A stretch of DNA of 64,000 nucleotides from an uncultured Gammaproteobacteria bacterium (lineage in GTDB: Bacteria; Pseudomonadota; Gammaproteobacteria; UBA9214), in the NCBI GenBank assembly GCA_963827755.1, contig CAWHCQ010000014.1:1-64000 (forward strand). Direction: 5' to 3'. Each line of letters begins with the position of its first letter. Positions within the stretch are counted from its first letter, which is position 1. Both the position numbers and the translations under genes were made by a program. The notes beneath the pieces were generated by a model. The model was not told the origin of the DNA, made no database searches, and worked only from the letters and a program-made list of their open reading frames with translations. This document shows, in pieces, positions 12,915-52,072 of this stretch.

Positions 12915-12932
12915 TTGATTAACTTCACCGGA

Positions 12933-13039: not shown

Positions 13040-13143
13040 TCAATGGACTACCCGGAATAACATGTCTGGCTGGCAGGCGTGCGGGACGGGTAGTGCAGCC
13101 AAGCAGATGTTTTTGGTCTGCATTTTGGCAAGGACGGAGGGTG

Positions 13144-14904
13144 ATGGTCTTGGAAAAACTGGCGCAATCATGGCTCGAGCAGCAATGCAACCTGATTAAC
13201 GGCGCATGTCGCGGGTTGGTCATGCTGAGCGTGCAGGACAAGGGCCGAATGAGCGATGTGGCGCACTGGCCGGCAGAGGCAAGTGGTTCGCCCCTGTTGC
13301 TCGCTGCAGCAAGGAAGGCGGTGATGCAGCGTGGACCGGTGATCGAGCAGGGCGATGCGGCACAGTCCGCCGGCCGGCAAAATGTCCATGTCATCGCCTA
13401 TCCGCTGGTCAGCAAGGAAAGGGCGCTGGGCGTGATTGCAGTCGAGGTCGAGGCGCAGTCCGATACGCAGCATAAAGAGGTAATGAGTCTGTTGCGTGCC
13501 GGCAGCGTATTTTTCGAAATGCTGCTTGAACATCAGCATGACAAGCACCGGGAGCGATTGACGCGCATCCTGGAACTGGTTTCGCTGACACTTGACCAGC
13601 CGCATTTTCAGAGTGCGGCAACCTCGCTGGCAACCCGGCTGGCGAATGAGTTGTCCTGCAGTCGTGTCAGTATCGGCTTCATGCGCGGACGGTTTGTCAC
13701 CGTGCGTGCGTTATCGCACAGTGCCAAACAGGGCGTGAAGACCAGCCTGCTGCGTACCATCTCCGCTGCCATGGAGGAGGCGATCGATCAGGACACAACG
13801 CTCGTCTATCCCGGCAGTGAACATATCAATATTGCCCATCGCAAGCTGACCGAGCAAAACCAGGTAACCTCTGTTTGCACCATTCCGCTGGTGAATAACG
13901 GCAGCATAACCGGCGCCATAACATTTGAACGCAACAACCGGATCCCGTTCGATACGGAAACCGTGGATCTGTATACGCACGTGGCCAACCTGATCGGACC
14001 GATCCTGGAGCTGAAACGCAGCAATGACACATGGCCGATCGTGCGCCTGGTCATATCTGTTGGCGACTTTGTGAAAAAGCTGTTTGGTCCGCAACGTGCG
14101 CTGCTGAAGGCCGCCACGCTATCGCTGCTGTTGTTAGCCATTTATATGAGCGTGGCGACTGCGCCCTACCGGGTTAGTGCAAAGGCAGCGCTGGAAGGCA
14201 GTATTCAGCGTGCCGTGGTTGCGCCGATCGATGGATTTATCCTCGATTCGGATGTACGTGCCGGGGATGTCGTCCAGGCCGGGCAGCTGATGGGGACGCT
14301 TGATGACCGTGAACTGAAGCTGGAGCAGCAGAAGCTGATCAGTGAAAAGGCGCGTCATTCGCGTGAATACCGCAGTGCCATGGCAGGGCATGAACGTGCG
14401 CAAAGCTCAATTCTCGATGCGCGCATCAGCCAGGCCGATGCCCGCCTGCAATTGGTTAACAAGCAGCTCGAACGCATGCAAATCGTGTCGCCGCTCACCG
14501 GTGTGGTGGTGACAGGTGATCTCTCCCAGTCACTCGGGTCCCCGGTCAGCCGCGGAGATATACTCTTCGAGGTCGCGCCGCTGGAAGACTATCGTCTGGT
14601 TCTAAGCATCGATGAACGCGATATGCCGTATATTGCCGATGCCCAGAAAGGCGAGCTGAAACTTTCAGGCCTGCCCGGGGATGCACCGGGCTTCACCGTC
14701 AGCCGCATCACGCCGGTATCCGAGTCGGGCGACGGTGCCAACTACTACCGGGTTGAGGCAAAGCTGGATGATCCGCCGGTATTGCTGCGTCCCGGCATGG
14801 AAGGTGTCGGCAAGATCGAGATCGGTGAGCGCAGGCTGATGTGGATCTGGACTCACAGGATGACTAACTGGCTGAAGCTGAAACTATGGGCCTGGTGGCT
14901 GTGA
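13144..14904 (+). CDS. GAF-domain HlyD/membrane-fusion (periplasmic adaptor) protein
   Basis: Two GAF-like regions (VIAYPLV...LGVIAVE; AAMEEAIDQD...VCTIPLV...GAITFER), one TM helix, then an MFP hybrid/hairpin (VVAPIDGFI...VRAGDVV...IVSPLTGVVVTGDL...LRPGMEGVGKI). GGAGG RBS at 13136-13140. Confidence 0.8.
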   Translation: MVLEKLAQSWLEQQCNLINGACRGLVMLSVQDKGRMSDVAHWPAEASGSPLLLAAARKAVMQRGPVIEQGDAAQSAGRQNVHVIAYPLVSKERALGVIAVEVEAQSDTQHKEVMSLLRAGSVFFEMLLEHQHDKHRERLTRILELVSLTLDQPHFQSAATSLATRLANELSCSRVSIGFMRGRFVTVRALSHSAKQGVKTSLLRTISAAMEEAIDQDTTLVYPGSEHINIAHRKLTEQNQVTSVCTIPLVNNGSITGAITFERNNRIPFDTETVDLYTHVANLIGPILELKRSNDTWPIVRLVISVGDFVKKLFGPQRALLKAATLSLLLLAIYMSVATAPYRVSAKAALEGSIQRAVVAPIDGFILDSDVRAGDVVQAGQLMGTLDDRELKLEQQKLISEKARHSREYRSAMAGHERAQSSILDARISQADARLQLVNKQLERMQIVSPLTGVVVTGDLSQSLGSPVSRGDILFEVAPLEDYRLVLSIDERDMPYIADAQKGELKLSGLPGDAPGFTVSRITPVSESGDGANYYRVEAKLDDPPVLLRPGMEGVGKIEIGERRLMWIWTHRMTNWLKLKLWAWWL

Positions 14905-14905
14905 A

Positions 14906-17053
14906 ATGACGCAGTCGATGTACAGCCAGTACTGGTACCGTGTTGCCGATGTGCGGCCGCGAATCCGCGATCATGTCCAGTTGCATCGCCATTATTACCG
15001 TGGCCGCCGCAGCTACATGCTGCAGGATGAATCCAGCGGTGCGTTTCACAGCTTCAGCCCGGAAGCCTACGTGCTCATCGGCCAGATGGATGGCAAGCGC
15101 ACGATAGACGAAATCTGGGAAACCACGCTGGATAAGCTGGGCGAGGATGCGCCTGGCCAGGAAGACACGCTGCACCTGCTGGGGCAGTTGCATGCGGCGG
15201 ACATACTGCAGTGCAACACTACGCCTGATATTCTCGAGGTGTTCGAACGCTACCGCCACAAGCGGCGCCAGGACTGGAAGCAGCGCCTCACCAACCCGAT
15301 GTTCCTGCGCCTGCCGCTGTGGGACCCGGACAAGTTCCTCACCCGCTGGCTGCCGCTGGTACGGCCGATATTCAGCTGGGGCGGACTAGCGCTGTGGACA
15401 TTGGTCGTGCTGCTGGGGACCGTATATGCCGGTGTCTACTGGGAGCCGATTACCGCGGGTATTGTCGACAAGGTATTGAACCCCTGGAACCTGGCAATCA
15501 TGGTGGCTACCTATCCGCTGGTGAAGCTGCTGCATGAGTTTGGCCATGCGTTTGCCACCCGCGTGTGGGGCGGTGAAGTCCACGAGATGGGCATCATGTT
15601 CCTGGTGCTTATGCCAATTCCCTATGTCGATGCCACCGCATCGGCCGGCTTTCAGCAGAAGGGCCGGCGTTTCCTGGTAAGCGCCGCCGGCATGATGGTG
15701 GAACTGTTCCTGGCAGCGCTCGCGCTGTTTGTATGGATCAACGTCGAGACCGGCATCGTCAGTGCTATCGCCTATAACATCATGCTCATCGGCAGTATTT
15801 CCACAGTGTTCTTCAACGGCAATCCGCTGTTGCGCTTCGACGGCTATTACATGCTGGCAGATGCCATCGAGATTCCCAACCTCAGCGTGCGCGCAAAGCG
15901 TTACCTCAGCTACCTGTCGATGCGCTATCTATACGGCATGGAAGAGGTGGCTTCACCGGTATCGGCACATGGCGAGGCAGCCTGGTTTGCATTCTACGGG
16001 GTCGCCTCCTTTGCCTATCGCATGATGATCATGGCGGTGATTATTCTCTACATCGCAGGCAAGTTCTTTTTCGTCGGGGTGCTGCTGGCAATCTGGGCAG
16101 TCACACTGCAAATCGTCCTGCCGCTGGTGCGCCATGTCAAATTTCTTCTCAACGATGGACGCTTGCAGCAGCAGCGCGCGCGTGCACTCGGTGTTACGGG
16201 TGCCGGGCTGGTGCTGTTGCTGGTGATGTTATTTGCAGTGCCGGCGCCGCTCTGGACCATGGCCGAAGGCGTGGTGTGGCTGCCGGAGAAGTCGCGTATC
16301 CGGGCCGGGACCGACTGCTTTGTAACGGCGGTGCTGGCGCAAACGGATGCCAGCGTAAAAAGTGGTGATCCCGTGATGACGTGTGAAGACCCGCTGTTGT
16401 CAGCAGAGGCTATGGCGCTGGATGCGCGTCTGCAGGAGCTGCGCGCAGAACATACGCTGGCTATGACGGAAGCGCCTGTCGAGGCGCTGAGCATCATGCA
16501 GGATATACAGACCGTGAATCAGCAACTCGACGAATCACGCCGCCAACTGGGTGAACTGGTATTGCGCAGTACATCCGATGGTCGGCTGGTGATACCGATG
16601 TCAACGGATCTCGAGGGCCGCTTTGTGCGTCGCGGTGCGACGCTGGCCTATGTCATCAACGATGCGGCTAGCCGCGCGCGGGTGGTTGTGACGCAGGCCG
16701 ATATCGGCCTGGTGAGGCAGCGCACCACGGGCGTCGGGCTGCGCATGGCAGGAAAGCCGGAACGGACGATTGCCGCCAGTGTGTACCGCGAGGTACCGGC
16801 CGCCTCGGATGAATTGCCAAGCAAGGCACTGGGTACCGAAGGCGGCGGCATGATACCGGTCGATCCGGCCGATGAATCGGGAGTACGCGCACTGGCAACC
16901 CTGTTCCAGTTCGAGCTGGAACTGCAGGAGGATCTGCCTGCGCAACTTTACGGTCAGCGCGTCTATGTGCGTTTTGATCATGGCACGGAGCCGCTCGGGA
17001 TCCAGTGGCAACGCTTATTGCGGCAACTATTCATGCGCAAGTTCGGAGTCTGA
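14906..17053 (+). CDS. PqqD/RRE-like domain + M50 (site-2 protease) peptidase + MFP fusion protein
   Basis: N-terminal ~100 aa resemble PqqD/RRE (YMLQD...MDGKRTIDEIW...LLGQLHAADIL). HEFGH zinc motif and NPLLRFDGYY, several TM helices, C-terminal MFP-like hairpin/barrel. Confidence 0.8.
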   Translation: MTQSMYSQYWYRVADVRPRIRDHVQLHRHYYRGRRSYMLQDESSGAFHSFSPEAYVLIGQMDGKRTIDEIWETTLDKLGEDAPGQEDTLHLLGQLHAADILQCNTTPDILEVFERYRHKRRQDWKQRLTNPMFLRLPLWDPDKFLTRWLPLVRPIFSWGGLALWTLVVLLGTVYAGVYWEPITAGIVDKVLNPWNLAIMVATYPLVKLLHEFGHAFATRVWGGEVHEMGIMFLVLMPIPYVDATASAGFQQKGRRFLVSAAGMMVELFLAALALFVWINVETGIVSAIAYNIMLIGSISTVFFNGNPLLRFDGYYMLADAIEIPNLSVRAKRYLSYLSMRYLYGMEEVASPVSAHGEAAWFAFYGVASFAYRMMIMAVIILYIAGKFFFVGVLLAIWAVTLQIVLPLVRHVKFLLNDGRLQQQRARALGVTGAGLVLLLVMLFAVPAPLWTMAEGVVWLPEKSRIRAGTDCFVTAVLAQTDASVKSGDPVMTCEDPLLSAEAMALDARLQELRAEHTLAMTEAPVEALSIMQDIQTVNQQLDESRRQLGELVLRSTSDGRLVIPMSTDLEGRFVRRGATLAYVINDAASRARVVVTQADIGLVRQRTTGVGLRMAGKPERTIAASVYREVPAASDELPSKALGTEGGGMIPVDPADESGVRALATLFQFELELQEDLPAQLYGQRVYVRFDHGTEPLGIQWQRLLRQLFMRKFGV

Positions 17054-17056
17054 CAG

Positions 17057-19060: not shown

Positions 19061-19091
19061 GGCCTAACGCTTACTTGAAAGAACTGAAATT

Positions 19092-19967
19092 ATGAGATTA
19101 CTCACCTATAGACATTTGCTTTTACTACTTACCGGTTTGCTGCTACCTGCTGCAGTCAATGCCATGGAATATTACTGCATGATGGAGCCGCACCGCACGG
19201 TCGAGGTGAAAAGTTCGGTCAACGGCAGGATCGAGGCAATATATGTCGAGCGCAGTGATCTTATTACTTCCGGTCAGCCACTGGTGGAATTCGAGTCCAA
19301 GGTAGAGAAGGCCACGGTGGAGCTGGCACGCGCCAAGGTTGAAATGCGCGCCGAATACGACAGCAGCCGGGTTAGCCACCGTTTCGCAGTTCGCAAACTG
19401 GGACGTTTCGACGGCCTGGCGGAAGAGGGCGTGGTGGCGGTACAGATCAAGGATGAAGTGGAGACCGAGGCCGCACTTGCCAGGTTGCAAATGCTCCAGG
19501 CAAAGGAAAACAAGCGCCTTGCCGAGCTGGAACTGGATCGCGCCCTTGCCGTGCTCAGCCACCACACAGTCATCAGTCCGTTGACCGGGGTCGTGGTCGA
19601 GCGGCTCAAATCACCGGGTGATTACGCGGAAGACGGGGCAATTATAAAGGTCGCGCAGCTGGATCCACTCAATATCGAGGTGCTGCTGCCTGCCTCGAAA
19701 TTTGGCACCATCAAGCCGGGTATGAAGGCACGCGTAACCCCGGAACTCGGAAGCGCGGGCAGTTATACTGCCGAAGTGAAGATTGTCGATCGCGTCGTGG
19801 ATGCCTCGAGTGGCATGTTCGGCGTGCGCCTGGAGCTGCCCAATCCAGACAACAAGTTGCCGGGTGGCCTGAAATGCTCACTCAATTTTGACGGTGACAG
19901 CAGCCGGAGCCTGTCCGGTAATTCCCCGGTGATCGGTACGGCCGAGTTTGACCTGGCCAAAAAATAG
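19092..19967 (+). CDS. Efflux RND-type periplasmic adaptor (MFP) subunit
   Basis: Signal peptide; VKSSVNGRIEAIYVERSD, ISPLTGVVVER, VVDASSGMFGVRLELPNPD..LPGG. Confidence 0.85.
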   Translation: MRLLTYRHLLLLLTGLLLPAAVNAMEYYCMMEPHRTVEVKSSVNGRIEAIYVERSDLITSGQPLVEFESKVEKATVELARAKVEMRAEYDSSRVSHRFAVRKLGRFDGLAEEGVVAVQIKDEVETEAALARLQMLQAKENKRLAELELDRALAVLSHHTVISPLTGVVVERLKSPGDYAEDGAIIKVAQLDPLNIEVLLPASKFGTIKPGMKARVTPELGSAGSYTAEVKIVDRVVDASSGMFGVRLELPNPDNKLPGGLKCSLNFDGDSSRSLSGNSPVIGTAEFDLAKK

Positions 19968-20041
19968 CACCTCACCCGCACCTCACCAGCACCCCACTGC
20001 TAATCTAGCACCATTATGGTGCGGTATATTCCTGTTCACCT

Positions 20042-20068
20042 TCAAGTATTTCAATATTTTGCCGATTT
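20042..20068 (+). promoter_or_regulatory. Sigma28 (FliA)-like promoter of the giant-protein gene
   Basis: TCAA(G)-N15-GCCGATTT, 86 nt upstream of ATG 20155. Confidence 0.5.
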
Positions 20069-20154
20069 CTGTTCTGTGATGTTGCGCCTGGTTTTTTCAT
20101 AAAGCTGCGACACCCGGCGCTATGTGCCGGAAACAGGTTGTTCTTGGCAAGGAA

Positions 20155-23100
20155 ATGGCGAAAAAAGACAAACAGAAAAAAAGATACAAAAGCAAACCTT
20201 TACTGGAAGCGGTCGAACCACGCCTGCTGTTTTCAGCGGGACTCGAAGGTGTGCTCGCGGCCGAGCATGTGCAGGCGCCGGCGGACGACTACAGTCAGGC
20301 GGTGGTGGAGCAGGGCAATGCCAGCAGCACTCCGGAAACCAGTGAGTTCAGCGACGCCGATGTTCGTGTCGAGCTGATTTTTGTCGACACAGATACGCCG
20401 GAATATCAAAAACTGCTGTCGGACCTGCTCGTCTACCCGGACAACACCACGACCTACCAGGTGTTTGAACTCGATAATACCCAGGATGGCATCATACAGA
20501 TCAGTTCTGTCCTGAGCGGCTATGACAATGTCAGTGCAATACACATCCTCTCACACGGGTCGGAGGGTACCATCGACCTGGGTGGCGGTACGCTGGACAG
20601 CGACACACTGGCTGCCAATGCGGATCTGATCCGTTCCTGGGGCGGTGCCTTTAGCGATAATGCCGACATCCTTATATACGGCTGTAATCTCGCGGCAAGC
20701 GAGGCGGGCCAGTCGCTGGTCGGCAGCCTGGCCGGCATCACCGGCGCCGATGTCGCGGCCTCCGATGACATTACCGGCAGCGCAGCGCTGGGCGGTGACT
20801 GGGACCTGGAATACCAGGTCGGGCAGGTGGACGCTGTTCTGTCCACCGACGACAGCGTGCGCATCGAGTGGTCGGGGACGCTCGACAGCAGCGAGGTGGC
20901 GGCCAACTCCCTGACCACGCCGCTGGCCTTCGAGGCCAACGTTGGCCAGACCGATGCCCGAGTGGACTTCCTGGCGCGCGGCAGTGGTTACAGCGTGTTC
21001 CTCAGCGACGGCGATGCCGTGCTCGCGCTGCAGGAGGGGGACGGCGGACATGCCATTCACCTCGACCTGGTCGGCGGTGACAGCGATGCCGCGGTGAGCG
21101 GCGAGGACCTGCTCGGCAGTTACAGCAATTACCTCATCGGCAGCGATTCGGATGCCTGGCAGAGCAGTGTCGAAAATCACGCGGCTGTCGTGTACTCCGA
21201 CGTCTACAATGGCATCGACGTGCGCTACTACGGCAACCAGCGCCAGTTCGAGTACGACTTCATCGTCGCCGCCGGTGCCGATACCAGCCAGATACAACTT
21301 GCATTCGACGGTGTCGCCTCGATCAGCCTGGCCGACAATGGCGATCTCCTTTTGACACTGAACGCGCAGGGCGACCAGATCACCTTCAAGGCACCGATCG
21401 CCTTTCAGCTTGCCGCTGACGGCAGCCGCGAGGCGGTCGCAAGCCAGTACGAGATCAACGAAGACGGCAGCGTGGGTTTCGCGCTTGGCGAGTACGATGC
21501 GAGCCGCACGCTGGTTATCGACCCGATACTCAGCTGGGCCAGCTACTTCGGCGGCACCGGGACCGAATCGATCATCAGATATCGCGCTGGATGCCGGCGG
21601 CAATGTCTATGTCACCGGCAGCGCCTCGATTCCCGCGACCCTGCCCATCACGGCCGGGCCGTTCGGTACGCCCGGGGCGCAGGACGCCTTCGTGGCGAAG
21701 TTCAGCAACGACGGCAGCACGCTGCTGTATTCGACCTATTTCGGCGGCGGCTCCGCGGACACGGCAAGCGGCATCGTCGTCGACAGTGCGGGCAACATCT
21801 ATGTTGCGGGCAACACCTACTCGAATAACTTTCCCACGATCAATGGCAACGACACCGCGATCGCCGGCAGCAAGGATGCCTACGTGGTCAAGCTCAACGC
21901 GGCAGGCACTGCCATCGTCTACGGCAGCTACCTCGGCGGCAGCGGCAGCAACGGCGAATCGGTCGGCGGCATCGCGCTCGACCCGTCGGGCGCGGGGCGC
22001 GTGGTGGTCGCAGGCGACACCGACTCCAACAATCTGCCCACCAAGAATGCCTACGACACCACGCTGGGCGGCATCTACGACGGCTTCATCGCGGCCTACG
22101 ACACCACGCTGACCGGGACCGCTTCGCTGCTCTACTCGAGCTACTTCGGCGGCAGCAACGGCGGCGGCGGCACCGGCAACGAGTCGCTCAACGCGACTCG
22201 CCGTCGACGCCGCGGGCAATATCTACCTGACCGGACACAGCTCCGCGACCAGCGAATTCCCGCTAACGGCCAACGCCTTTGATGCCACCACGCCGACGAG
22301 CAACGACGCCTATGTCACAAAACTGAAGTGGAACGGCGGCACCAGCTGGAGCACCTTGTACAGCAGCTACATCGCTTCCGATGTCGTCGGCTCGAGCGAA
22401 TGTGGGCGAAGCCATCGCGGTGGATGCTTCGGGTTACATCTACGTGGCCGGCAAGGTCAGCAGCAGCGGCTTCCCCACGAAGAATGCCTATGACACGAGC
22501 GCGCAACGGCAGCACCGACGTGTTCATCGCGAAGTTCGACCCGGCCGCCGCGACCGGCCCCGACTCGCTCGTCTACTCCACCTACTTTGGCGGCAGCGGC
22601 AGGGACTATGTGAACGACCTCGCGGTGGATGCGAGCGGCAACGTTTATGCGACCGGATACACGAACTCCGGCAACCTTCCCCTGACCGGAGATGCCCACG
22701 ACAGTGTACTCAGCGGTACGACCGATGCCTTCGTTATCATCCTGGGCGCCGGCGGAAACACGCTGGACTACTCGACCTACCTGGGCGGCGATGCCACCGA
22801 GACCGGCTATGCCCTCGCCCTGGATGCGAACAACAACATCTACATCGGCGGCAACACCGGATCGAACACCGGGCTCGCCACGGGCGGCGTCTACGACAAC
22901 AGCTACAACGGCTCGACCGACGGTTTCGTGGCCAAGTTGCTGGCCAACCGCGACCCCGTTGCGACGGACAATGTCTACACGACCAGTGAAGGCGTGGCCG
23001 TCGGCGGCAACGTCATCACAGACGACACCGGCGCCGGTATCGACAGCGATCCCGATACCGACCCGTTGACCGCCAGCCTGCTCGACGGCCCGCTGCACGG

Positions 23101-41100: not shown

Positions 41101-44100
41101 AGGGTACGACACTCAGTGACAGCTGGCTCGATCACCTTTACCGATCTCGACCTGACCGATACGCCGACGGCCACCGAGGTCACCAAGTCCGTGACCACGG
41201 CACTGACGCTGACGGCCGCACAGCAGACCGCGATCGAGGATGCCTTCACCATCAGTCCGGATGCCGGCAACACCAACAACGGCACCATCAACTGGGACTA
41301 CACCATCACCGAGGCCGAACTCGATTTTCTCGCCGCCGGCGAGACGGTGACGGTGGTGTATACGATTACGGTCGATGACGGCAATAGTGGCACCGACACC
41401 CAGGATGTGACCATCACGATCACCGGCACCAACGACGCACCCGGTCATCGCCATTGTCGATGTCACCGGCAGCATTACCGAGGGCGCGACACTTACCGAT
41501 AGTGGCTCGATCACCTTTACCGATCTGGACCTGACCGATACGCCAACGGCGACTGAGGTCACCAAGTCCGTGACCACGGCGCTGACGCTGACGGCCGCCC
41601 AGCAAACTGCCATTGAGGACGCCTTTACCATCAGTGCGCATGCTGGCAATACCAACAACGGCACCATCAACTGGGATTACACCATCACCGAGGCCGAGCT
41701 TGACTTCCTGGCAGCCGGTGAGACGGTCACGGTGGTCTACACCATCACGGTCGATGACGCCAATGGCGGTACCGATACCCAGGATGTGACGGTCACCATT
41801 ACCGGCGCCAACGACGCCCCGGTCATTGCGATCGTCGATGTGGCAGGCAGCATCACCGAAGGTGCCACGCTGACCGACAGTGGCTCGATCACCTTTACCG
41901 ATCTCGATCTGACCGATACGCCAACGGCAACGGAAGTGACCAAGTCCGTGACCACGGCACTGACCCTGACGGCTGCACAGCAGACCGCGATCGAGGATGC
42001 CTTCACCATCAGTCCCGGATGCGGGCAATACCAACAACGGTACCATCAACTGGGACTACACCATCACCGAGGCCGAGCTTGATTTTCTCGCAGCCGGCGA
42101 GACGGTCACGGTGGTTTACACCATTACGGTCGATGACGCCAATGGCGGCACGGATACCCAGGATGTCACGGTCACCATTACCGGCGCCAACGACGCCCCG
42201 GTCATCGCTGTCGTCGATGTCACAGGCGTCATCACCGAAGGCACTACGCTGACTGACAGTGGCTCGATCACCTTTACCGATCTCGACCTGACCGATACAC
42301 CGACGGCGAGTGAGGCCACCAAGTCGGTCACCACGGCACTGACGCTGACGGCTGCCCAGCAAACGGCCATCGAGAATGCCTTTACCATCAGTGCCGATGC
42401 CGGCAACACCAACAACGGTACCATCAACTGGGATTACACCATCACCGAGGCCGAACTCGACTTCCTCGCCGCGGGCGAGACGGTGACCGTGGTATTCACC
42501 ATCACGGTGGATGATGGCAATGGCGGCACCGACACCCAGGATGTGACGGTCACTATCACCGGCGCCAACGATGCCCCGGTCATCGCCGTTGGTCGATGTC
42601 ACAGGCAGTATCACCGAGGGCAGTACACTCACCGACAGCGGTTCGATCACCTTTACCGATCTTGACCTGACCGATACACCAACGGCCACGGAAGTGACCA
42701 AGTCCGTGACCACGGCACTGACATTGACGGCCGCCCAGCAGACGGCGATCGAGGACGCCTTCACCATCAGTGCGGCGGGGGGTAATACCAACAACGGCAC
42801 CATCAACTGGGATTACACCATCACCGAGGCCGAGCTCGACTTCCTGGCCGCCGGCGAGACAGTCACGGTGGTCTACACCATCACGGTCAATGACGCCAAC
42901 GGCGGCACCGACACCCAGGATGTGACGGTCACGATCACCGGTGCCAACGACGCCCCGGTCATTGCGGTCGTCGATGTGGCCGGCAGCATCACCGAGGGTA
43001 CGACACTGAGTGATGCCGGCTCGATCACCTTTACCGATCTGGACCTCACCGATACACCAACGGCAACGGAGGTGACCAAGTCGGTGACCACGGCATTGAC
43101 CCTGACGGCTGCACAGCAGACCGCGATCGAGGATGCCTTCACCATCAGCCCTGATGCCGGCAATACCAACAACGGCACCATCAACTGGGATTACACCATC
43201 ACCGAGGCCGAGCTCGATTTCCTCGCCGCCGGCGAGACGGTCACGGTGGTCTACACCATCACCGTCGATGATGCCAACGGCGGCACCGACACCCAGGATG
43301 TGACGGTCACCATCACCGGCGCCAACGACGCCCCGGTCATTGCGGTCGTCGATGTCGCAGGCGCTATCACCGAAGGCACCACGCTGAGTGATGCTGGTTC
43401 GATCACCTTTACCGATCTCGACCTGACGGATACGCCGACGGCAAGTGAGGCCACCAAGTCAGTCACCACGGCACTGACGCTGAGTGCGGCGCAGCAAGCT
43501 GCGATCGAGAATGCCTTCACGCATCAGTGCGGCGATGCAGGCAATACCAACAACGGCACCATCAACTGGGATTACACCATCACCGAGGCCGAGCTCGACT
43601 TCCTCGCGGCCGGCGAGACGGTCACGGCCGTGTTCACCATTACCGTCGATGACGGCAATGGCGGCACCGACACCCAGGATGTGACGGTCACGATCACCGG
43701 CAGCAACGACGCGCCGGTCATTGCGGTCGTCGATGTGGCAGGTAGTATCACCGAGGGCAGCACGCTGAATGATGCCGGTTCGATCACCTTTACCGATCTT
43801 GACCTCACCGATACACCAACGGCGAGTGAAGTCACCAAGTCCGTGACCACGTCGCTGACACTGACAGCCGCCCAGCAGGCCGCAATCGAGGACGCCTTCA
43901 GCATCAGTGCAGCGGCAGGCAATGCCAATAACGGCACCATCAACTGGGACTACACCATCACCGAGGCCGAGCTTGACTTCCTCGCCGCCGGCGAGACGGT
44001 CACGGTTGTCTATACCATCACCGTCGATGACGCCAATGGCGGCACCGACACCCAGGATGTGACGGTCACCATCACCGGCTGCCAACGATGCCCCGGTCAT

Positions 44101-47100
44101 CGCGGTTGTCGATGTGGCCGGCAGTATTACCGAGGGCAGCACGCTGAGTGATGCCGGTTCGATCACCTTTACCGATCTCGACCTGACCGATACACCGACG
44201 GCAACCGAGGTCACCAAGTCCGTGACCACGGCGCTGACGCTGACAGCCGCCCAGCAGACAGCGATCGAGGATGCCTTCACGATCAGTGCCGGATGCCGGC
44301 AACACCAACAACGGCACCATCAACTGGGATTACACCATCACCGAAGGCAGAGCTCGACTTCCTCGCCGCGGGTGAAATAGTCACGGTGGTCTATACCATC
44401 ACCGTCGATGACGCCAATGGCGGTACCGACACCCAGGATGTCACGGTCACCATCACCGGTGCCAATGATGCCCCGGTCATTGCGGTGGTCGATGTGGCCG
44501 GCAGTATTACCGAGGGCGCCACGCTTACTGACAGTGGTTCGATCACCTTTACCGATCTCGACCTCACCGATACACCAACGGCGAGTGAAGTCACAAAATC
44601 CGTGACAACGGCACTGACGCTCAGTGCAGCGCAGCAGGCTGCAATCGAGAATGCCTTCAGCATCAGTGCGGCAGCAGGCAACACCAACAATGGCGCCATT
44701 AACTGGGACTACACGATCAGTGAGGCAAATCTCGACTTCCTTGCCGCGGGCGAGACCGTCACGGCCGTGTTCACCATTACCGTGGACGACGGCAACGGTA
44801 GCACTGACACCCAGGATGTGAGCGTCACCATCACCGGTGCGAACGACGCCCCGGTCATTGCCATCGTCGATGTGGTGGGTAGTATCACCGAGGGCACGAC
44901 ACTCACCGACACTGGCTCGATCACCTTTACCGATCTCGACCTTACCGATACACCGACGGCCACCGAGATCACCAAGTCAGTGACCACGGCACTGACCCTG
45001 ACGGCTGCACAGCAAACCGCAATCGAGGACGCCTTCAGCATCAGTGCGGCAGCAGGCAACACCAACAACGGCACCATTAACTGGGACTACACGATCACCG
45101 AGGCCGAGCTCGACTTCCTCGCCGCCGGCGAGACGGTCACGGTCGTCTATACGATCACCGTCGATGACGCCAATGGCGGCACCGACACCCAGGATGTGAC
45201 GGTCACCATCACCGGCAGCAACGATGCCCCGGTCATCGCGGTTGTCGATGTGGCCGGCAGTATCACCGAGGGCAGCACGCTGAGTGATGCCGGTTCGATC
45301 ACCTTTACCGATCTCGACCTGACCGATACACCGACGGCGACTGAGGTCACCAAGTCGGTGACCACGGCACTGACACTGACGGCCGCCCAGCAGGCCGCGA
45401 TCGAGGATGCCTTCACGCATCAGTCCGGATGCCGGCAACACCAACAACGGCACCATCAACTGGGATTACACCATCACCGAGGCCGAGCTCGACTTCCTCG
45501 CCGCCGGCGAGACGGTCACGGTCGTCTTCACCATTACCGTCGATGACGGCAACGGCGGCACCGATACCCAGGATGTGACGGTCACCATCACCGGCGCCAA
45601 CGACGCCCCGGTCATTGCGGTTGTCGATGTCGACAGGCAGTATCACCGAAGGCAGCACGCTGACCGACAGTGGTTCGATCACCTTTAGCGATCTCGACCT
45701 GACCGACACGCCGACGGCGAGTGAGGCCACCAAGTCGATCACTTCTGCGCTGACGCTGAGTGCAGCGCAGCAGGCCGCGATCGAGAATGCCTTCAGCATC
45801 AGTGCGGCGGCAGGCAATACCAACAACGGCACCATCAACTGGGATTACACCATCACCGAGGCCGAGCTCGACTTCCTCGCCGCCGGCGAGACGGTCACGG
45901 CCGTGTTCACCATTACCGTCGATGACGGCAACGGCGGCACCGACACTCAGGATGTGACGGTCACCATCACCGGTGCCAACGACGCGCCGGTCATCGCCGT
46001 CGTCGATGTGACAGGCAGTATCATCGAGGGCAGCACGCTGAATGATGCCGGTTCGATCACCTTTACCGATCTCGACCTGACGCGATACGCCGACGGCCAC
46101 CGAGGTCGACCAAGTCCGTGACCACGACACTGACCCTGACGGCGGCACAGCAGGCCGCGATCGAAGACGCCTTCAGCATCAGTGCGGCGGCAGGCAATGC
46201 CAACAACGGCACCATCAACTGGGATTACACCATCACCGAGGCCGAGCTTGACTTCCTCGCCGCGGGCGAGACGGTGACCGTTGTCTACACGATCACCGTC
46301 GATGACGGCAATGGCGGTACCGACAGCCAGGATGTGACAGTCACCATCACCGGCAGCTAATGACGCACCGGTCATCGCGGTCGTCGATGTGGCAGGCAGT
46401 CAATCACCGAGGGCAGCACGCTGAGTGATGCCGGTTCGATCACCTTTACCGATCTCGACCTGACCGATACGCCAACGGCGACCGAGGTCACCAAGTCCGT
46501 GACCACCACGTTGACGCTGACCGCGGCCCAGCAGGCCGCAATCGAGGATGCCTTCACCCTCAGTGCGGATGCCGGCAATACCAACAACGGCACGATCAAC
46601 TGGGATTACACCATTACCGAGGCCGAGCTCGACTTCCTCGCCGCGGGCGAGACGGTCACGGTGGTCTACACCATCACCGTCGATGACGGCAACGGCGGCA
46701 CCGACACCCGGGATGTGACGATTAATATCCTCGGCAGCAACGACACGCCGATTGTCAGCAATGTCAACGCCAACGCTGTAGAAGACGGGGCGACCGTCAA
46801 TGGAAGCTTCGTGGTCACTGATGTCGATGCCACCGACACGCATAGCTTTGATATCACCGGCAGCCCGGCTGAAGGCTCGGTGATAAACAATAATGACGGC
46901 ACCTTTAGCTTCGATCCTGGCACCGATTTCCAGGATCTTGCCCTCGGTGAGACCCGTGATGTGACGTTTACCTACACATCGACCGATGACAGCGGCGCGG
47001 GCAATGCCACCAGCACCGCTGCCACGGTTACAGTGACGGTCACGGGCACCAACGATCAGCCGACGGTGAGCGATGTCGGGATCAATGCGATCGAGGACGG

Positions 47101-48619
47101 AGCAACCGTGACCGGCAGCTTTGTGGTCGGTGATGTCGATACCACCGATATGCATAGCTTTGATATTACGAGTGCATTGAGCGAAGGGTCGGTCATCAAC
47201 AATAACGATGGGACCTTTACCTTCAATCCCGGTGCTGACTTCCAGGATCTTGCCATCGGCGAGACGCGCGATGTCAGCTTTAGCTATACGACAACGGATG
47301 ACAGCGGCGCGGCCAACGATACCAGCACGGCCGCGACAGTTACCATCACGGTAACGGGCACGAACGATGCACCGACCGCGGCGAGTAACACGCTCACCAC
47401 GCTCGAAGACGTGGCCCATGTATTCACGGCGGCCGACTTCAACTTTAGTGACATCGACGGCGATTCGCTCGCCGGCGTCGAGATCACCAGCCTGGAATCT
47501 GCAGGCAGCCTGCAACTGAACAGTGTGGATGTCATCCTGAACCAGCTGGTCAGCAAGGCCGACATCGATGCCGGCAGGTTGAGATTTATACCGGCGGCCA
47601 ATGCCAACGGCGCCGCTTATGACAGTTTTGGCTTCAAGGTATTTGACGGAACCGATTACAGCGCCGCTGATTACACGATGGCGCTTGATGTCACGGCGGT
47701 GAACGATACCCCGGTGGGCCTGCCGAAAATAACCGGGCTCGTCGAAGAAACCCGGACCCTGACGGCGGACACCTCCGGTATCAGTGATGTCGAGGGCCTG
47801 GGGGCATTCAGTTATCAGTGGTACCGGAATGACGCTGCGATCAGCGGTGCGACCTCTGACACATACACCCTGGGCACAGTGGATGTAGGCTTTGTCATCA
47901 AGGTGAAGGTGAGTTACACGGACGGGGCGGGCACCGATGAGAGCGCGACCAGTGAAGGTGTCGGCCCGGTCGGCGGTTTACCCGCCGGAAGTGGCACTGG
48001 TATTCCGGATATCGAGGTTACATCCGATCCAACATTACCGGACCCGGTTACTGATATACCTGACCAGAAAATCATTGAACCCGGAACTCTAATCCTGGGT
48101 GAGACTTATACAGGTGCGGGTGCTGATGAAGGCTTTAGAGCCTACCAGGTCGATCCTTATGAAATCCCCGACTATGACCGGGAGTTGTATTCGGATGCGC
48201 CAGGGACATCCGGCTTCCTGAAATTTGCCGTCAGGCCAATCATCCAGGCAGGCACGGATATAACCGAAGAATTGCTGCAGTTATTTGACCTGGTGCGGAT
48301 CGAGATAAACGAAGTCGATGAACGGTCAGCCAGGACGTACCTGGTATCAGCCGGCAGTGTCGTCATGTCGCTGTCACTGGGGGTAGTCGCCTGGGTGATA
48401 CAGGGCGGCTCTATCGCGGCCAGTATGCTGTCTTCGGTGACGGCCTTGAAGGGCCTGGACCCGATGCCGTTTATTGATAATTGCAAGAAGCGTGGTAACA
48501 GGAAAACCGTGGATGCCAGCGATGGCGACCAGCAGCTTGACGAAATGTTTGATGGCAAAATGGATGCAGAGGAAACGAAGTCTGTTGACACGCCATCCGG
48601 GGAAAAGGACGTATCATGA
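20155..48619 (+). CDS. Giant (~9,500 aa) repetitive surface protein/adhesin with LEPR-XLL leader, DUF4347, SBBP-type propeller, cadherin/Ig-like, LamG, FG-GAP and VCBS-type repeats; many apparent indel errors
   Basis: Coding is continuous when frames are switched at roughly 30 single-base indels. [12 protein letters not shown] at ~20203-20238; DUF4347 ([23 protein letters not shown]...GGDWDLE); YSTYFGG repeats; LDFETTP cadherin; LamG domains at ~26780-27370 and ~38630-39250; DLDGDGDxD FG-GAP repeats at 27560-28530; C-terminal hydrophobic motif. Confidence 0.85.
28765..36714 (+). repeat. Tandem block 1: 21 copies of a 378-nt (126-aa) VCBS/Ig-like repeat
   Basis: Unit [39 protein letters not shown]...[50 protein letters not shown], with starts about every 378 nt (28765, 29149, 29528 ... 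36336). Confidence 0.92.
39917..46738 (+). repeat. Tandem block 2: 18 copies of the same 378-nt repeat
   Basis: Unit starts at 39917, 40295, 40674 ... 46359, followed by two copies of a different ~104-aa repeat (46739-47360). Confidence 0.92.
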
Positions 48620-51507
48620 GAAAATTATTTCCAGCAATGCGCGTGAGCCTCAGTCTGATTATGGCGGTGGTTTCGATTATCCTGCTTTCCGATCTGCTCG
48701 GTATCATTCCGGATGGTTCAGAGGCTGTCATCGACAGCAGAAAGAAAATCGCCGAGACGCTGGCCGTCCAGTATTCACTGGCAGCACGCAGGAATGACTA
48801 TGATTCGATCGAGTCCAGCATGAGGATGCTGGTGGAGCGTAATGCAGAAGTGGAATCTGCCGCCCTGCGCACTGCTGACGGCAGGATCGAGGCGGTAGTC
48901 GGCGAACATGAAGGATTCTGGGATAGAGGAGCGGGTGACAAGTCAACACCAACCCAGCTACAGGTCCCTATTTACACGAATGCAACGCTGAAGCAGAAAT
49001 GGGGTAGTGTTGAGTTGCGGTTTACCCCCGCCAGCAAGCTTGATATTTTCGGCATCGCCATCAGTCCATTTGTATTAATGACCGTCTTTATCGGTGTGGT
49101 CGGGTTCCTTGTTTTTCTGTTGCTGATCAAGAAAATATTAACCAGCATCGATCCGTCAGCGGTGATTCCATCGCGGGTCAGGAAGGCCCTCGACACCTTG
49201 AACGAAGGTGTTTTGCTGGTCGACAAAAAAGGGCGGATCCTGTTTGCGAACGAGATGTTTACGGCCACGCTGGGTCAGGGTGAGTCCGAGATGCTTGGCA
49301 GAAAGATCGTGGATCTTGGCTGGAAGGGCAATCATGCTGAATTGCCGTGGGTGAATACATTGCAAACCGGCGTCAGTTCGGTTGGACAGAAAATCGGGCT
49401 GGCCCTCGCTGATAAAAGCGAAATCCAGTTCGTCGTCAACAGTGCCGCGGTACTTGATGACAAAGGCAATCAGCAGGGTGCAATGGTGACGTTTGATGAT
49501 GTTACCGAACTTGAATCCAGGAATAATGAGCTGCGTGAAATGGTCTCCAGGCTGAAGGATTCTTCAGAATATATTAACCGCCAGAATGAAGAGCTACGTG
49601 TCCTTGCTACACGTGATCCGCTGACGAATTGTCTGAACCGGCGTACCTTGTTTGATCAGTATGAGGATAATTGTCTGGAGGCTATCAGGAATAACACCGA
49701 CTTTAACTGCATGATGCTTGATATTGATCACTTCAAACATGTAAATGATACCTACGGCCACGCAGCCGGGGATTTGGTGCTCAAGGTTATATCGGTCGCA
49801 ATCAAGGATGTGTTGCGCAGTGATGACGAGGTATTCCGTTATGGTGGTGAGGAATTTTGCATATTGCTGCCGAATGCCGATATCAATTCTGCTACCAGTA
49901 TGGCTGAGCGGGTGCGTGAAAATATTGAGGCACAAATCGTTAATGATGCAATTGAAGGCCGGGAAATTCGCGTAACAGCCAGTATCGGTCTCAGCTCGGT
50001 CAAGTTCGGTGCGGATAATCTGCAGGAACTGATCGAGGCAGCCGATGCTGCTCTTTATGAGTCGAAACGTAAAGGACGTAATCGTGTAACAATCTGGTCA
50101 GCCAGCGTCGATCAGCTCGACGTGGATGCAAATGACGAAACAATAATCGGATCTGATACCCCGTCAGACGAGCACGAGTATGTTGATAAGGTCACGAGAC
50201 TGCCGAACCGTACAGACTTCCGGCGAGAGCTTTCCAGGTTGCTGTTGTATTCACAGCAACATAATGAGTATGCAGCTGTATTGTTGCTTGATCTTGATAT
50301 GTTCAAACGTATCAACAATCTATTCGGCTATACGGCAGGTGATACGGTACTTGAGGCTGTGGCAGAACGACTTGAGAAATCTGTCCGTGTATCAGACTCT
50401 GCTTGCAGAATCAGCAATGGTTTGCTTAAGAACGAGGTGTACGGTCTGGGGGGTGATGAATTCGGAATCCTGCTATCCGGGCTTGAATCGAAGCACGATG
50501 TGTCAACTGTCGTTGAACGTTTGATCGAGTCTCTGTCTTTGCCGGTTAGCGTCAATGACCAGGATGTATTTATGACGTGCAGTATAGGTGTCAGCCAGTT
50601 TCCAACCGATGGTACAGACGCCGATAGCCTGGTCACTTGTGCAAGTGTAGCCATGCAGCAAGCCAAACGTGGCGGCAAAAATTCCTGCCAGTTCTTCCGG
50701 AATGATTTTGTTTCCGTGGTCAGGGATGATTACGAAATCGAGAAGGCGCTGCGTCATGCGCTTCAGAATGACGAATTCGAGCTTTACTTTCAGCCACAGC
50801 TTGATGTGCAGACGCTGCGTATTGATTCAATGGAAGCCTTGATCCGCTGGCAACATCCACAACGCGGCATGATTATGCCGGCAGACTTCATATCGGCAGC
50901 TGAAAAAACAGGACAGATTGTCGATATCGGTAAGTGGGTTATCAATGAGGCCTGCCAGCAAATCAGGAGCTGGCTTGATCTTGGCATTGAATTACCTGTT
51001 GCTATTAATCTGTCTCCTGTGCAGTTCCGTCAGAATGACCTGGTTGAACTGATCAATACAGCGGTTGCTGCGGTAAAGGTCGATCCGAGATTACTTCAGC
51101 TGGAAATTACGGAAAGCACGATCATGGAGGATCTGGAAAGCGCACTGGAGACCATGCAGACCCTGTCCAGGCTGGGCTACAAGATATCGATCGATGATTT
51201 CGGTACGGGTTATTCTTCGCTGGAATACCTGAAGCGTTTCCCTGTTGACAATCTGAAAATCGATCGTGCCTTTATCAAGGATGTTGTTACCGATCCCGGT
51301 GATGCCTCAATCGTGCGTGCCACCATCAGCATGGCGCACGGCATGGGTCTCCAGGTTGTTGCCGAAGGCGTTGAGACAGAAGAACAGTTGTTATTCCTGC
51401 GTAATTTGCGTTGCGATCTGATCCAGGGGTTCCTGCTGGGTGTGCCACTACCGGCAAAGGATGTCATTGCCCTGATCGACGAGGAGCAGTGGCAGACGCA
51501 GGCCTGA
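48616..51507 (+). CDS. Membrane PAS-GGDEF-GGDEF-EAL c-di-GMP metabolism protein
   Basis: Two TM helices and a PAS domain; GGDEF1 RSDD...RYGGEEF (I-site present); GGDEF2 LGGDEF; EAL domain with MEALIRW, DDFGTGYSS and VVAEGVET. The start overlaps the giant-gene stop (ATGA). Confidence 0.92.
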   Translation: MRKLFPAMRVSLSLIMAVVSIILLSDLLGIIPDGSEAVIDSRKKIAETLAVQYSLAARRNDYDSIESSMRMLVERNAEVESAALRTADGRIEAVVGEHEGFWDRGAGDKSTPTQLQVPIYTNATLKQKWGSVELRFTPASKLDIFGIAISPFVLMTVFIGVVGFLVFLLLIKKILTSIDPSAVIPSRVRKALDTLNEGVLLVDKKGRILFANEMFTATLGQGESEMLGRKIVDLGWKGNHAELPWVNTLQTGVSSVGQKIGLALADKSEIQFVVNSAAVLDDKGNQQGAMVTFDDVTELESRNNELREMVSRLKDSSEYINRQNEELRVLATRDPLTNCLNRRTLFDQYEDNCLEAIRNNTDFNCMMLDIDHFKHVNDTYGHAAGDLVLKVISVAIKDVLRSDDEVFRYGGEEFCILLPNADINSATSMAERVRENIEAQIVNDAIEGREIRVTASIGLSSVKFGADNLQELIEAADAALYESKRKGRNRVTIWSASVDQLDVDANDETIIGSDTPSDEHEYVDKVTRLPNRTDFRRELSRLLLYSQQHNEYAAVLLLDLDMFKRINNLFGYTAGDTVLEAVAERLEKSVRVSDSACRISNGLLKNEVYGLGGDEFGILLSGLESKHDVSTVVERLIESLSLPVSVNDQDVFMTCSIGVSQFPTDGTDADSLVTCASVAMQQAKRGGKNSCQFFRNDFVSVVRDDYEIEKALRHALQNDEFELYFQPQLDVQTLRIDSMEALIRWQHPQRGMIMPADFISAAEKTGQIVDIGKWVINEACQQIRSWLDLGIELPVAINLSPVQFRQNDLVELINTAVAAVKVDPRLLQLEITESTIMEDLESALETMQTLSRLGYKISIDDFGTGYSSLEYLKRFPVDNLKIDRAFIKDVVTDPGDASIVRATISMAHGMGLQVVAEGVETEEQLLFLRNLRCDLIQGFLLGVPLPAKDVIALIDEEQWQTQA

Positions 51508-51607
51508 TGTCCGGCCATGATTTCGGGATGTTTTGCAGATTGAAGTTATTCGAGCAGGTGTGTTTTGTGTCAACTACTCTGGAATTGTTTTCAGAAGGAT
51601 AAAGATC

Positions 51608-52072
51608 ATGAAGTATTCTCATGACAGCGGAATTCTCGACAATTTCAGTCTGGAAACCATTGATACGGCTCAACGTGATCGTGTCGGCTCTTCATACGCC
51701 ATCGAGCTCCGTCGTTGCCCGCGGGTGGATACCTGGTTCAAGGCGCATATGACCTCGGATTATGGCAGGATCGATGGCTTTGTCAGCAACCTGTCACGCA
51801 GCGGCTTGTGTTTTGAAGCCGGCAGCGAACTGCCTGATCTTTTCATGACAGGCAATGGACAGCATGCAAGCCAGGCTTCAAGTATCGTTGAAATCAGTTT
51901 CGATCTACCCATACAAAATGCCGGATGTAGACCGCTTATCGTACAGGCAAGGACCGTTTATGTTATTCAAGGCGACGAGGGCAGGTACAGGTGCGGTGCA
52001 GAATTCAGATTCTTGACCGAAGGCGAGGAGGCGCTTGAAAATTACCTTCGTGACAGGGGTGCAGGGAAATAA
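51608..52072 (+). CDS. PilZ-domain protein
   Basis: RRCPR (RxxxR) and NLSRSG ((D/N)xSxxG) c-di-GMP-binding motifs, C-terminal YRCGAEF. AAGGA RBS before ATG 51608 (the ORF is open from 51533). Confidence 0.75.
   Translation: MKYSHDSGILDNFSLETIDTAQRDRVGSSYAIELRRCPRVDTWFKAHMTSDYGRIDGFVSNLSRSGLCFEAGSELPDLFMTGNGQHASQASSIVEISFDLPIQNAGCRPLIVQARTVYVIQGDEGRYRCGAEFRFLTEGEEALENYLRDRGAGK

Follow-up and report, generated by a model that had tools for sequence, protein, structure and literature searches.

Giant surface adhesins shape biofilms, symbioses and sediment communities. To our knowledge, the sole established export route for such giants in diderm bacteria is type I secretion driven by an ABC transporter, with two-partner secretion and autotransporters serving smaller ones. 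A different arrangement is found in the 64,000-nucleotide stretch analyzed here (the window), which is the first 64 kb of contig CAWHCQ010000014.1 (hereafter C14) in assembly GCA_963827755.1 from an uncultured Gammaproteobacteria bacterium (GTDB lineage UBA9214). Between positions 13144 and 52072, the window carries seven co-directional coding units on the + strand. The first four (g1 to g4) encode a GAF-domain membrane-fusion protein (MFP); a fusion of a ribosomally synthesized and post-translationally modified peptide (RiPP) recognition element (RRE), an M50-type site-2 protease (S2P) and an MFP; a SecA-type ATPase; and a small MFP. They are followed by a giant adhesin-like gene (g5), whose product begins with a leader of the LEPR type, and by genes for a GGDEF/EAL protein and a PilZ-domain protein (Table 1). 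With moderate confidence, we favor the view that the locus is a dedicated envelope-spanning machine for the export and processing of giant adhesin-like proteins that carry LEPR leaders.

Domain assignments come from Pfam and NCBIfam scans of the products of the open reading frames (ORFs) of the window. A preliminary description of the locus had noted seven co-directional genes, gaps of 1, 3 and 31 nt among the first four, and an overlap between the giant gene and the GGDEF/EAL gene. The ORF coordinates bear this out: the gaps lie at 14904/14906, 17053/17057 and 19060/19092, and the ATG of the GGDEF/EAL gene (48616) overlaps the stop of the last giant-gene frame (48619). The three MFPs, the intramembrane zinc protease and the SecA paralogue of that description are likewise recovered by the Pfam and NCBIfam matches and by a structure model of g2.

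Type I secretion systems (T1SSs) for giant adhesins are exemplified by LapA with LapBCE, LapD and LapG, and by HlyBD-TolC. The locus resembles them in its MFPs, in the TolC-like channel encoded in the same operon at some related loci, in giant repetitive substrates of Ig/cadherin type, many relatives of which have RTX repeats, and in the proximity of cyclic di-GMP (c-di-GMP) genes. A protease that acts on the N-terminal part of the substrate is a further likeness, this being LapG in the Lap systems and, presumably, the M50 domain here. In contrast, no ABC transporter is linked to the module, its ATPase belongs to the SecA family, and its substrate bears a conserved N-terminal leader. The module also has three different MFPs, two of which are fused to cytoplasmic or membrane parts (GAF domains in one, the RRE and S2P domains in the other). 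The substrate in the window has a predicted C-terminal anchor and lacks RTX repeats and a C-terminal signal, and a canonical Lap system is encoded separately, on contig C39.

The g3 gene encodes a SecA-type core that retains both nucleotide-binding domains (NBD1 and NBD2) and the preprotein cross-linking domain (PPXD), with Pfam matches to SecA_DEAD (4.6e-100), SecA_PP_bind (2.7e-29) and P-loop_SecA (6.2e-52). The wing/scaffold domain SecA_SW has no Pfam match in g3, and the protein scores below the cut-off of every NCBIfam model for SecA or SecA2 (616 versus 814 bits and 497 versus 930 bits for the two). In the best PDB SecA match, 8ya0_A (765 aa), it aligns to residues 25-591 and ends where the scaffold helix begins; across the best PDB SecA matches (765-780 aa), the alignment stops at chain residue 591-604. 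Canonical SecA uses its two-helix finger, wing domain and tail at SecY. As judged from these alignments, the wing domain, the two-helix finger and the C-terminal tail are all missing from g3; it is predicted to keep the motor and the polypeptide clamp and to have none of the regions that canonical SecA places in SecY. The truncation is a trait of the family: in each of the 64 orthologues whose 3' end is complete, the protein ends no more than 6 residues from a common point (655-670 aa), and the Walker A sequence GEGKT is retained in 63 of these 64. The protein is 38% identical to the canonical SecA of the same genome (904 aa, contig C31), and its orthologues in other phyla are mostly 44-58% identical to it.

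The accessory SecA2 proteins of Gram-positive bacteria and mycobacteria offer a partial parallel, in that a second SecA serves a few unusual and often very large adhesins, and NBD1, PPXD, NBD2 and the Walker A motif are kept. Unlike SecA2, g3 occurs in diderm phyla and ends directly after NBD2, whereas the alignment of solved SecA2 chains (778-786 aa) runs on past that position. No genes for SecY2, Asp proteins or glycosyltransferases were seen among the neighbors of the module, and g3 is always paired with MFPs and the S2P fusion.

The g2 protein joins three folds that are each known from other systems. Its structure model, built from a 47-row alignment, has a pLDDT of 89.2 and a pTM of 0.74. 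Residues 18-104 match TbiB1 bound to its leader peptide (5v1u; Z 9.9 over 83 residues, rmsd 2.9), and also the lasso-peptide B1 protein with leader (6jx3, Z 9.8) and PqqD (5sxy, Z 8.9); the Pfam PqqD match is weak (E 0.0087). Residues ~142-389 adopt the S2P fold (RseP, Z 9.5; SpoIVFB with pro-sigma-K, Z 9.2), with about eight transmembrane segments when counted by eye on the model. The Pfam Peptidase_M50 score of the window copy (23.8 bits) falls below the cut-off of 27.2. Residues H210, E211, H214, N304, N306, P307 and D312, which make up the HExxH and NxxPxxxxD motifs, are invariant in 47/47 sequences. Residues 448-693 form an MFP fold. The model thus presents g2 as a leader-binding RRE fold, a site-2 protease with an intact active site and an MFP within one protein, with leader binding predicted. 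A predicted complex of the RRE (residues 1-135, 47 rows) with the leader (44 residues, 20 rows) scored 0.01 against a mark of 0.32 and carries no weight either way.

Two further groups of systems share parts with g2. Leader recognition and removal in RiPP pathways, by PqqD-like RREs and by HExxH proteases such as those of the daptide and YydH/LiaK systems, likewise combines an N-terminal RRE fold with an M50-type HExxH membrane protease, and among NCBIfam models g2 matches that of the daptide intramembrane metalloprotease, NF041824, best (9.4e-42). In contrast to RiPP proteases, g2 reaches only 143.5 bits where the equivalog cut-off is 300, it is fused to an MFP, its presumed leader stands on proteins of 2,000-14,000 residues, and no maturases recur nearby. 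Tripartite efflux pumps share the MFP fold (MexA, Z 14.2; HlyD, also matched, has Z 10.8; MacA, EmrA and AcrA are further matches), and an outer-membrane factor (OMF) is present in a sister module and at 12 of 80 related loci. Unlike these pumps, the module contains no resistance-nodulation-division (RND), ABC or major facilitator superfamily transporter, and the CusCBA operon adjacent to it in the window is convergent and self-contained.

The remaining two machinery genes also encode HlyD-family (membrane-fusion) domains, so that Pfam finds such domains in g1, g2 and g4. In g1, two GAF-type matches (GAF_3, 6.8e-13) precede the HlyD_3 match (1.9e-19). An alternative start for g1 is the GTG at 13093; homologues align from about residue 18-25 of the ORF that begins there.

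The four genes are conserved as a unit. A search of species-representative genomes gave 372 stretches with a relative of g2, of which the best 80 were taken with 10-kb flanks; synteny counts are restricted to loci with enough sequence on the relevant side. The g1 gene lies directly upstream of g2 at 70/70 testable loci, a SecA-like gene lies directly downstream of g2 at 66 of 68, and g4 follows g3 within 1.5 kb at 53 of 57. The 80 loci come from Gamma-, Beta- and Alphaproteobacteria, Desulfobacterota, Nitrospina, Nitrospira, Myxococcota, Planctomycetota and two bins labeled as Bacteroidota. The fixed order g1-g2-g3-g4 itself spans Gamma- and Betaproteobacteria, Desulfobacterota, Nitrospinota/Nitrospirota, Myxococcota and Planctomycetota, which amounts to at least six phyla; g1 to g4 are inherited as a block. 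The g2 family is large: 4031 clusters match at E<=1e-30, and almost all of the 150 best ones have lengths of 700-740 aa.

Several observations link this block to giant proteins with LEPR leaders. The genome has three copies of the module, on C14, on C15 (85-89% identical) and on C17 (46-56% identical), and each is followed by a gene with the leader and a DUF4347 domain. The four DUF4347 matches in the genome all fall within these three genes, the C15 gene giving two that are split by a frameshift. Among related loci, a leader-bearing ORF follows the module at 21 of 52 testable loci, and at 15 of 54 a giant ORF, continuing past the edge of the locus, lies before g1; one or the other is found at 29 of the 41 loci that are testable on both sides. 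Locus L002 is masked at the relevant place and is not a true negative in this count. When five module-bearing genomes without a downstream leader were searched with the leader profile, all five contained LEPR proteins (2,183-12,340 aa); in two of the five, Neptuniibacter and Motiliproteus, the end of the giant gene lies immediately upstream of g1.

Co-occurrence at the level of whole genomes agrees with this. In an evenly drawn sample of the class, 400 genomes were scored; a close g2 orthologue (E<1e-100) is present in 25 and a leader match in 24, with 21 genomes having both. Leader matches are thus present in 21/25 genomes with a close g2 orthologue versus 3/375 without one. Related genomes in the sample do not count as independent, but the positives span many families. 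The module occurs without a leader match in G015 (75% complete), G140, G152 and G358, and the leader without the module in G063 and G104 (80-82% complete) and in G405, where the match is to a 185-aa frame and is probably spurious. In G358, a variant leader, LESQERRILFSAD, is found directly after g4. The preliminary description had proposed profiling of the machinery genes with LEPR proteins across genomes, and its expectation that they travel together is confirmed by the fixed gene order and by these counts. It is very likely that the four genes serve giants with LEPR leaders.

The leader itself comprises a basic N-terminus followed by charged E/R residues, and it is not a hydrophobic signal peptide, as had been stated earlier. 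In an alignment of 20 leaders (A2), E18, E21, R23, L25 and S27 are invariant, and P and A are nearly so. The window leader scores 68.9 bits against the profile of A2, of which it is itself a member. The library model NF012209, which has 24 N-terminal positions, the library name LEPR-8K and the product name 'LEPR-XLL', matched only the C17 copy in this genome (21.8 bits, E 7e-4) and gave no match to the window leader at E<=0.01. NF012209 is too short and insensitive for profiling, and A2 was used instead. The start of g5 is probably the ATG at 20155 (MAKKDK...), as in homologues, rather than 20122.

Behind the leader lies DUF4347, an alpha/beta domain in which H134, G135 and C177 are invariant in 15 sequences, the His-Gly pair and the Cys each following one of two adjacent strands. 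The core of its model has pLDDT values of 80-96 and resembles flavodoxin and caspase-3 weakly (TM-scores about 0.3). As a lead only, DUF4347 might be a caspase-like protease with a possible Cys dyad, and perhaps a self-processing domain behind the leader. PMC8262886 places DUF4347 also in a protein associated with type VI secretion in P. aeruginosa.

The C-terminus of the giant protein is predicted to be a membrane anchor, consisting of a hydrophobic segment and a charged tail, an element that the preliminary description had not included. That description had reported no C-terminal RTX repeats; indeed, g5 has none, with one chance match to GGxGxD in three frames and no HemolysinCabind match in the pieces scanned. 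Homologous C-termini are found in a 4,737-aa LEPR protein of Motiliproteus (L104; E 6e-10) and in the same genome at C11:3804-4019. A search of the ESM Atlas with the C-terminal 140 residues returned unnamed clusters only, with recognition below a useful level. The idea that such an anchor is general to the giants was rejected, given that it is present in 0/15 giants of the upstream type and in 1/6 further LEPR giants, that of Motiliproteus. Several module-linked giants (L034, L038, L068, L072, L099 and L100) end with a matrixin-like HExxGHxLG motif, the sequence 'SWLxEFL', a short beta-like stretch and an acidic tail, and this shared ending may be a second, C-terminal element for recognition or processing. 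Endings of the RTX type or with 'SWLxEFL' resemble those of substrates exported C-terminus first, and the predicted C-terminal anchor in the window fits export N-terminus first.

Genes near the module give some indication of its partners. Among 193 ORFs within 3.5 kb of the module at the 80 loci, a TolC-like OEP gene is present at 12 loci, and at eight of these it is on the same strand directly beside the module. An ABC exporter is present at 1/80 loci (L055). No RND or SecY genes were found among these ORFs, and no radical-SAM, YcaO, lanthipeptide or similar maturase recurs. In the window, no ABC transporter is encoded in 13144-52072, and LapG and LapD are absent. The earlier statement that the locus has no ABC transporter thus holds, and so does the expectation that a cognate one is not consistently linked elsewhere. 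The corresponding statement about RND permeases is correct inside 13144-52072, but an operon of the CusCBA type abuts the locus directly. Profiling for TolC had also been proposed; TolC-like genes are operonic at some related loci (12/80) and in the sister module, and the operon in the window has none.

The sister module is defined by a family of g2-like proteins that are 24-30% identical to g2 and occur on contig C49 of the same genome and in 25 of the 400 class genomes (two of the sister-type genomes, G146 and G313, are unpublished). On C49:932-6766 (L098), the genes encode an OEP protein, a small MFP, a GAF-MFP and an M50-MFP. This full order is contiguous at 3 of 10 further sister loci (L106, L111 and L112), and at L107 and L108 the sister genes are present with a gap or a distant OEP gene. 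A SecA-like gene was found within about 8 kb at none of the 10 further sister loci, compared with 66/68 LEPR-linked loci, and none of the 25 sister-type genomes is leader-positive. Because the sister module has neither the SecA-like gene nor the leader, the core of three MFPs, S2P domain and OMF appears to be older, and the SecA-like gene an addition that tracks the LEPR giants.

Every part of the module comes from a known family, and the combination fits no known secretion system, since there is no ABC transporter, no part of SecA that engages SecY and no RiPP maturase. Searches of the main texts of open-access papers and preprints yielded no account of a SecA paralogue that acts together with MFPs, of proteins that fuse RRE, S2P and MFP parts or of what LEPR leaders do, and the accessible portions of PMC8277102, bioRxiv 10.64898/2026.03.19.712371, PMC8262886, PMC13723633 and PMC8939145 do not describe the module.

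We suggest that the locus would work as follows. The RRE of g2 would capture the leader in the cytoplasm, and the SecA-like g3 would drive the chain, unfolded and with its N-terminus leading, into oligomers of g2 and g1 assembled in the inner membrane. The three MFPs would form a periplasmic sleeve that leads to a TolC-like outer-membrane channel, and the M50 site of g2 would remove the leader. In the variant of this genome, the C-terminal hydrophobic segment would remain behind and anchor the protein in the inner membrane. Nucleotide second messengers may control activity or release through the GAF domains and through the GGDEF/EAL and PilZ genes next to the giant gene. A bolder proposal, which we offer tentatively, is that the module represents a new type of diderm secretion, in which a SecA motor truncated at its C-terminus docks not to SecYEG but to a ring of RRE-S2P-MFP and GAF-MFP subunits and threads adhesins of several thousand residues N-terminus first into an MFP/TolC tunnel, with a RiPP-style leader that selects the substrate and is then removed by the protease, and with gating of export or release by GAF domains and c-di-GMP; the modules without SecA would then be an ancestral form for small substrates.

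If the export reading is true, giant adhesins would have a further route, with an engine of the SecA family, selection of the substrate through an N-terminal leader that an RRE fold recognizes, and an intramembrane protease as part of the machine. The module is also widespread, given the size of the g2 family, its presence in ~6% of the sampled genomes of the class, and its distribution over at least six phyla that include Nitrospina, Nitrospira, Accumulibacter and sulfate reducers. The reading gives a testable function to three orphan features, namely, the LEPR leader, the truncated SecA paralogues of Gram-negative bacteria and the M50-MFP fusions. Cultivable carriers among the loci include isolates of Neptuniibacter (L011), Desulforhopalus (L029) and Nitrospina (L014).

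Table 1. Positions of the features discussed; positions refer to the window unless a contig is named.
Feature	Position	Strand	Evidence or remark
g1: two GAF domains (cytoplasmic), one transmembrane segment, periplasmic HlyD (MFP) domain	13144..14904	+	Pfam
g2: RRE (PqqD-like), M50 S2P membrane domain (HEFGH, NPLLRFDG), periplasmic MFP	14906..17053	+	Pfam, NCBIfam, model
g3: SecA-type ATPase core, NBD1, preprotein cross-linking domain and NBD2, 667 aa	17057..19060	+	Pfam
g4: small MFP, N-terminal segment resembling a signal peptide	19092..19967	+	HlyD_D23 4.2e-22, RND_mfp 3e-31
g5: giant adhesin-like gene, ~9,490 codons if read through	20155..48619	+	ORF tiling; interrupted at 29 places at least
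LEPR-type leader: basic N-terminus, then conserved motif	20155..20286	+	Alignment A2
DUF4347 domain, alpha/beta fold	20374..20883	+	PF14252 5.7e-51
Tandem array: 46.8 copies of a 378-bp (126-aa) Ig/cadherin-like unit	28831..46720	+	TRF, 76% matches, 5% indels; Big_9, Cadherin_4
C-terminal module of g5: hydrophobic segment and charged tail	48197..48616	+	Translation
PAS-GGDEF-(GGDEF)-EAL protein	48616..51507	+	GGDEF 3.2e-83, EAL 8.9e-78, PAS 9.8e-13
PilZ-domain protein	51533..52072	+	PF07238 9.5e-07, 29.5 bits (cut-off 22.5)
Convergent heavy-metal-type RND operon CusCBA (OEP, CusB-like MFP with HMBD, AcrB-family pump)	52135-57778	-	Adjoins the PilZ gene
Lap system	C39:8316-25003 (L095, L096)		LapG-like C93 protease; LapD is LapD_MoxY_N-GGDEF-EAL

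A number of observations weigh against a dedicated export machine. The mechanism is inferred from genomics and structure prediction, and a protein-conducting channel is not identifiable among the components, whose membrane parts are the S2P domain and single transmembrane segments. A TolC-like gene is not part of the operon in the window, and the only one nearby belongs to the convergent CusCBA operon. The SecA-like gene is missing at two module loci, L070 and L080. In the complete genome G152 (L116, C1:30645-39511), no LEPR leader was found, and two large FHA-like ORFs that have an extended signal peptide precede the module; there the module may serve a different class of substrate. HemolysinCabind (RTX) repeats are present in the last 800 residues of 8 of the 14 giants encoded upstream of the module elsewhere, so that N-to-C export cannot be generalized; in the L018 giant about 60 residues follow them, an arrangement like that of T1SS substrates that are exported C-terminus first. 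DUF4347 is also reported in RTX proteins of Azospirillum (PMC13723633). The same genome encodes a Lap-type T1SS on C39, with LapG, LapD, an LssB-type ABC protein (1011.9 bits, above the cut-off), an MFP and a TolC-like gene, and this system is available in the cell and could in principle serve other adhesins. The link of the giants to c-di-GMP, which rests on two cases in one genome, is suggestive. Finally, g5 is broken in this assembly, which is a complication, and real breaks would mean that this substrate gene does not function in the strain.

These points bear on the rival explanations to different degrees. Site-2 proteases are regulated intramembrane proteases and not channels, and the module might correspondingly be a switch for processing and release rather than a translocon. 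The RRE-M50-MFP fusion, the GAF-MFP and the small MFP would do no more than retain the leader at the membrane until a signal triggers its cleavage, as an inner-membrane analogue of LapG/LapD, and the giants would cross by SecYEG, with the SecA paralogue delivering them like mycobacterial SecA2, or by an ABC-driven T1SS. The invariant active site of g2 suits such a role, as do the GAF sensors and the neighboring GGDEF/EAL and PilZ genes; RTX repeats on more than half of the upstream giants are typical of ABC-T1SS substrates, and an LssB-type transporter is at hand. However, delivery to SecYEG agrees poorly with a g3 that is without the two-helix finger, wing domain and tail used at SecY. Passage through a T1SS is at odds with the single locus among 80 at which an ABC exporter is linked and with a window giant that has neither RTX repeats nor a T1SS-like C-terminus, and the Lap T1SS on C39 has RTX-bearing ORFs of its own beside it. 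Three MFPs, together with operonic TolC-like genes at related loci and in the sister module, are also poorly explained by a protease alone, and we consider a release switch, although the main rival, unlikely. An even smaller chance is given to the idea that g1 to g4 mature and export a RiPP or bacteriocin-like peptide, with the giant adjacent by chance or through the structure of an island. The daptide protease as best NCBIfam match, an RRE fold that is typical of RiPP leader recognition, the integrase just upstream of g1 and a SecA-less sister module that lacks the LEPR link and may serve small substrates are all consistent with it. Yet the 143.5 bits of that match fall far short of 300, no RiPP maturase recurs among the neighboring ORFs, and neither the co-occurrence with LEPR leaders across the class nor the adjacency of giants, at 29 of 41 fully testable loci and beside all three copies in this genome, would be expected, which makes this explanation very improbable.

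The condition of g5 raises a third possibility, namely, that the gene is a decaying pseudogene whose breaks are real and that the locus is a relic here, although the module family works elsewhere. The preliminary description had treated the giant as a single protein of ~9,500 aa; it is not one ORF. The region is tiled by about 25 ORFs in shifting frames, and by a shortest-path count, reading 20155-48616 as one protein needs at least 29 frameshifts or stop read-throughs, three of which are in-frame stops. Decay would account for these interruptions, for the intactness of the window genes outside the giant region, for frame changes in other copies (in g1 and g4 on C17 and in DUF4347 on C15) and for the lack of the module in two genomes of the same genus. 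On the other hand, all four breaks that could be checked against other assemblies are single extra bases in the window (at 21576, 22196, 25859 and 22402). The base at 21576, which causes the first break, is missing in L001, from an assembly 98-100% identical in g1 to g4; in contigs from three public runs, which belong to two studies, there is no extra base at 21576, 22196 or 25859, and in one run there is none at 22402, with contig cover being patchy in some runs. The 28 kb also stay coding-like in some frame with domain matches intact (DUF4347, DUF7948, SBBP, cadherin/Big_9, Laminin_G_3 and FG-GAP, with VCBS/cadherin after the tandem array), and the machinery genes g1 to g4 of the window copy are intact. 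Most of the breaks fall within the tandem array, and consensus errors are expected in an array of 47 copies and in a locus that is present three times. Judging from these comparisons, the breaks are quite likely to be mostly consensus errors in a repeat-rich, triplicated locus, and genuine decay of g5 is rather unlikely.

Returning to the neighborhood of the proposed export locus, the CusCBA operon was considered as the source of the missing transporter and was rejected, as it lies on the opposite strand and already includes an MFP and an OMF as a complete RND set of the heavy-metal type, and RND genes do not recur near the module elsewhere. OEP matches occur on five contigs in the genome, as would be expected from five OEP genes, and these could supply a TolC-like partner for the module. 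The only RTX-bearing ORF of the genome lies a few kilobases from the Lap genes of C39 and is the last in a run of ORFs on the same strand. This run may be a fragmented LapA-like adhesin, and the Lap T1SS seems to have its own substrate.

PilZ domains form a family of c-di-GMP receptors. Both giant-gene 3' ends that can be observed in the genome precede GGDEF/EAL genes. On C14, these are the PAS-GGDEF-EAL and PilZ genes. On C11:1-8747 (L105), a second giant-gene end with a similar C-terminal anchor is followed by genes for a PAS hybrid histidine kinase and a REC-GGDEF-EAL protein; it probably belongs to the copy on C15 or C17 as its 3' end. A database protein (P0160) joins DUF4347 with Pfam matches to GGDEF and EAL. 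In 12500-20400 and 48000-52400, predicted promoters and terminators were about as numerous as expected by chance.

The genome assembly totals 2.85 Mb in 52 contigs, with a completeness of 91.8% and a contamination of 5.4%. The module is absent from two genomes of the same genus in the class sample, and this absence and the nearby integrase suggest that the module spreads horizontally. The phage-type integrase gene is located at 11752-12771 (- strand), just upstream of g1, and a reverse-transcriptase gene (RVT_1) lies farther upstream at 2943-4157 (+ strand); with the same-genus absences, these genes suggest that the locus sits on a mobile island.

Some further genes and fragments were observed in passing. 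Upstream of the locus, at 6875-9427 (+ strand), is a gene for an 850-aa DUF748 protein with a weak OmpA-like C-terminus. An isolated match of 112 residues on C21:10125-10460 is 54% identical to residues 518-629 of g3 and may be a remnant of a fourth copy of the module. At related loci, genes of the SapC family (PF07277) adjoin the module in five cases (L011, L013, L067, L069 and L079), and a pair of Hsp70-like genes is found just downstream at L034 and L038.

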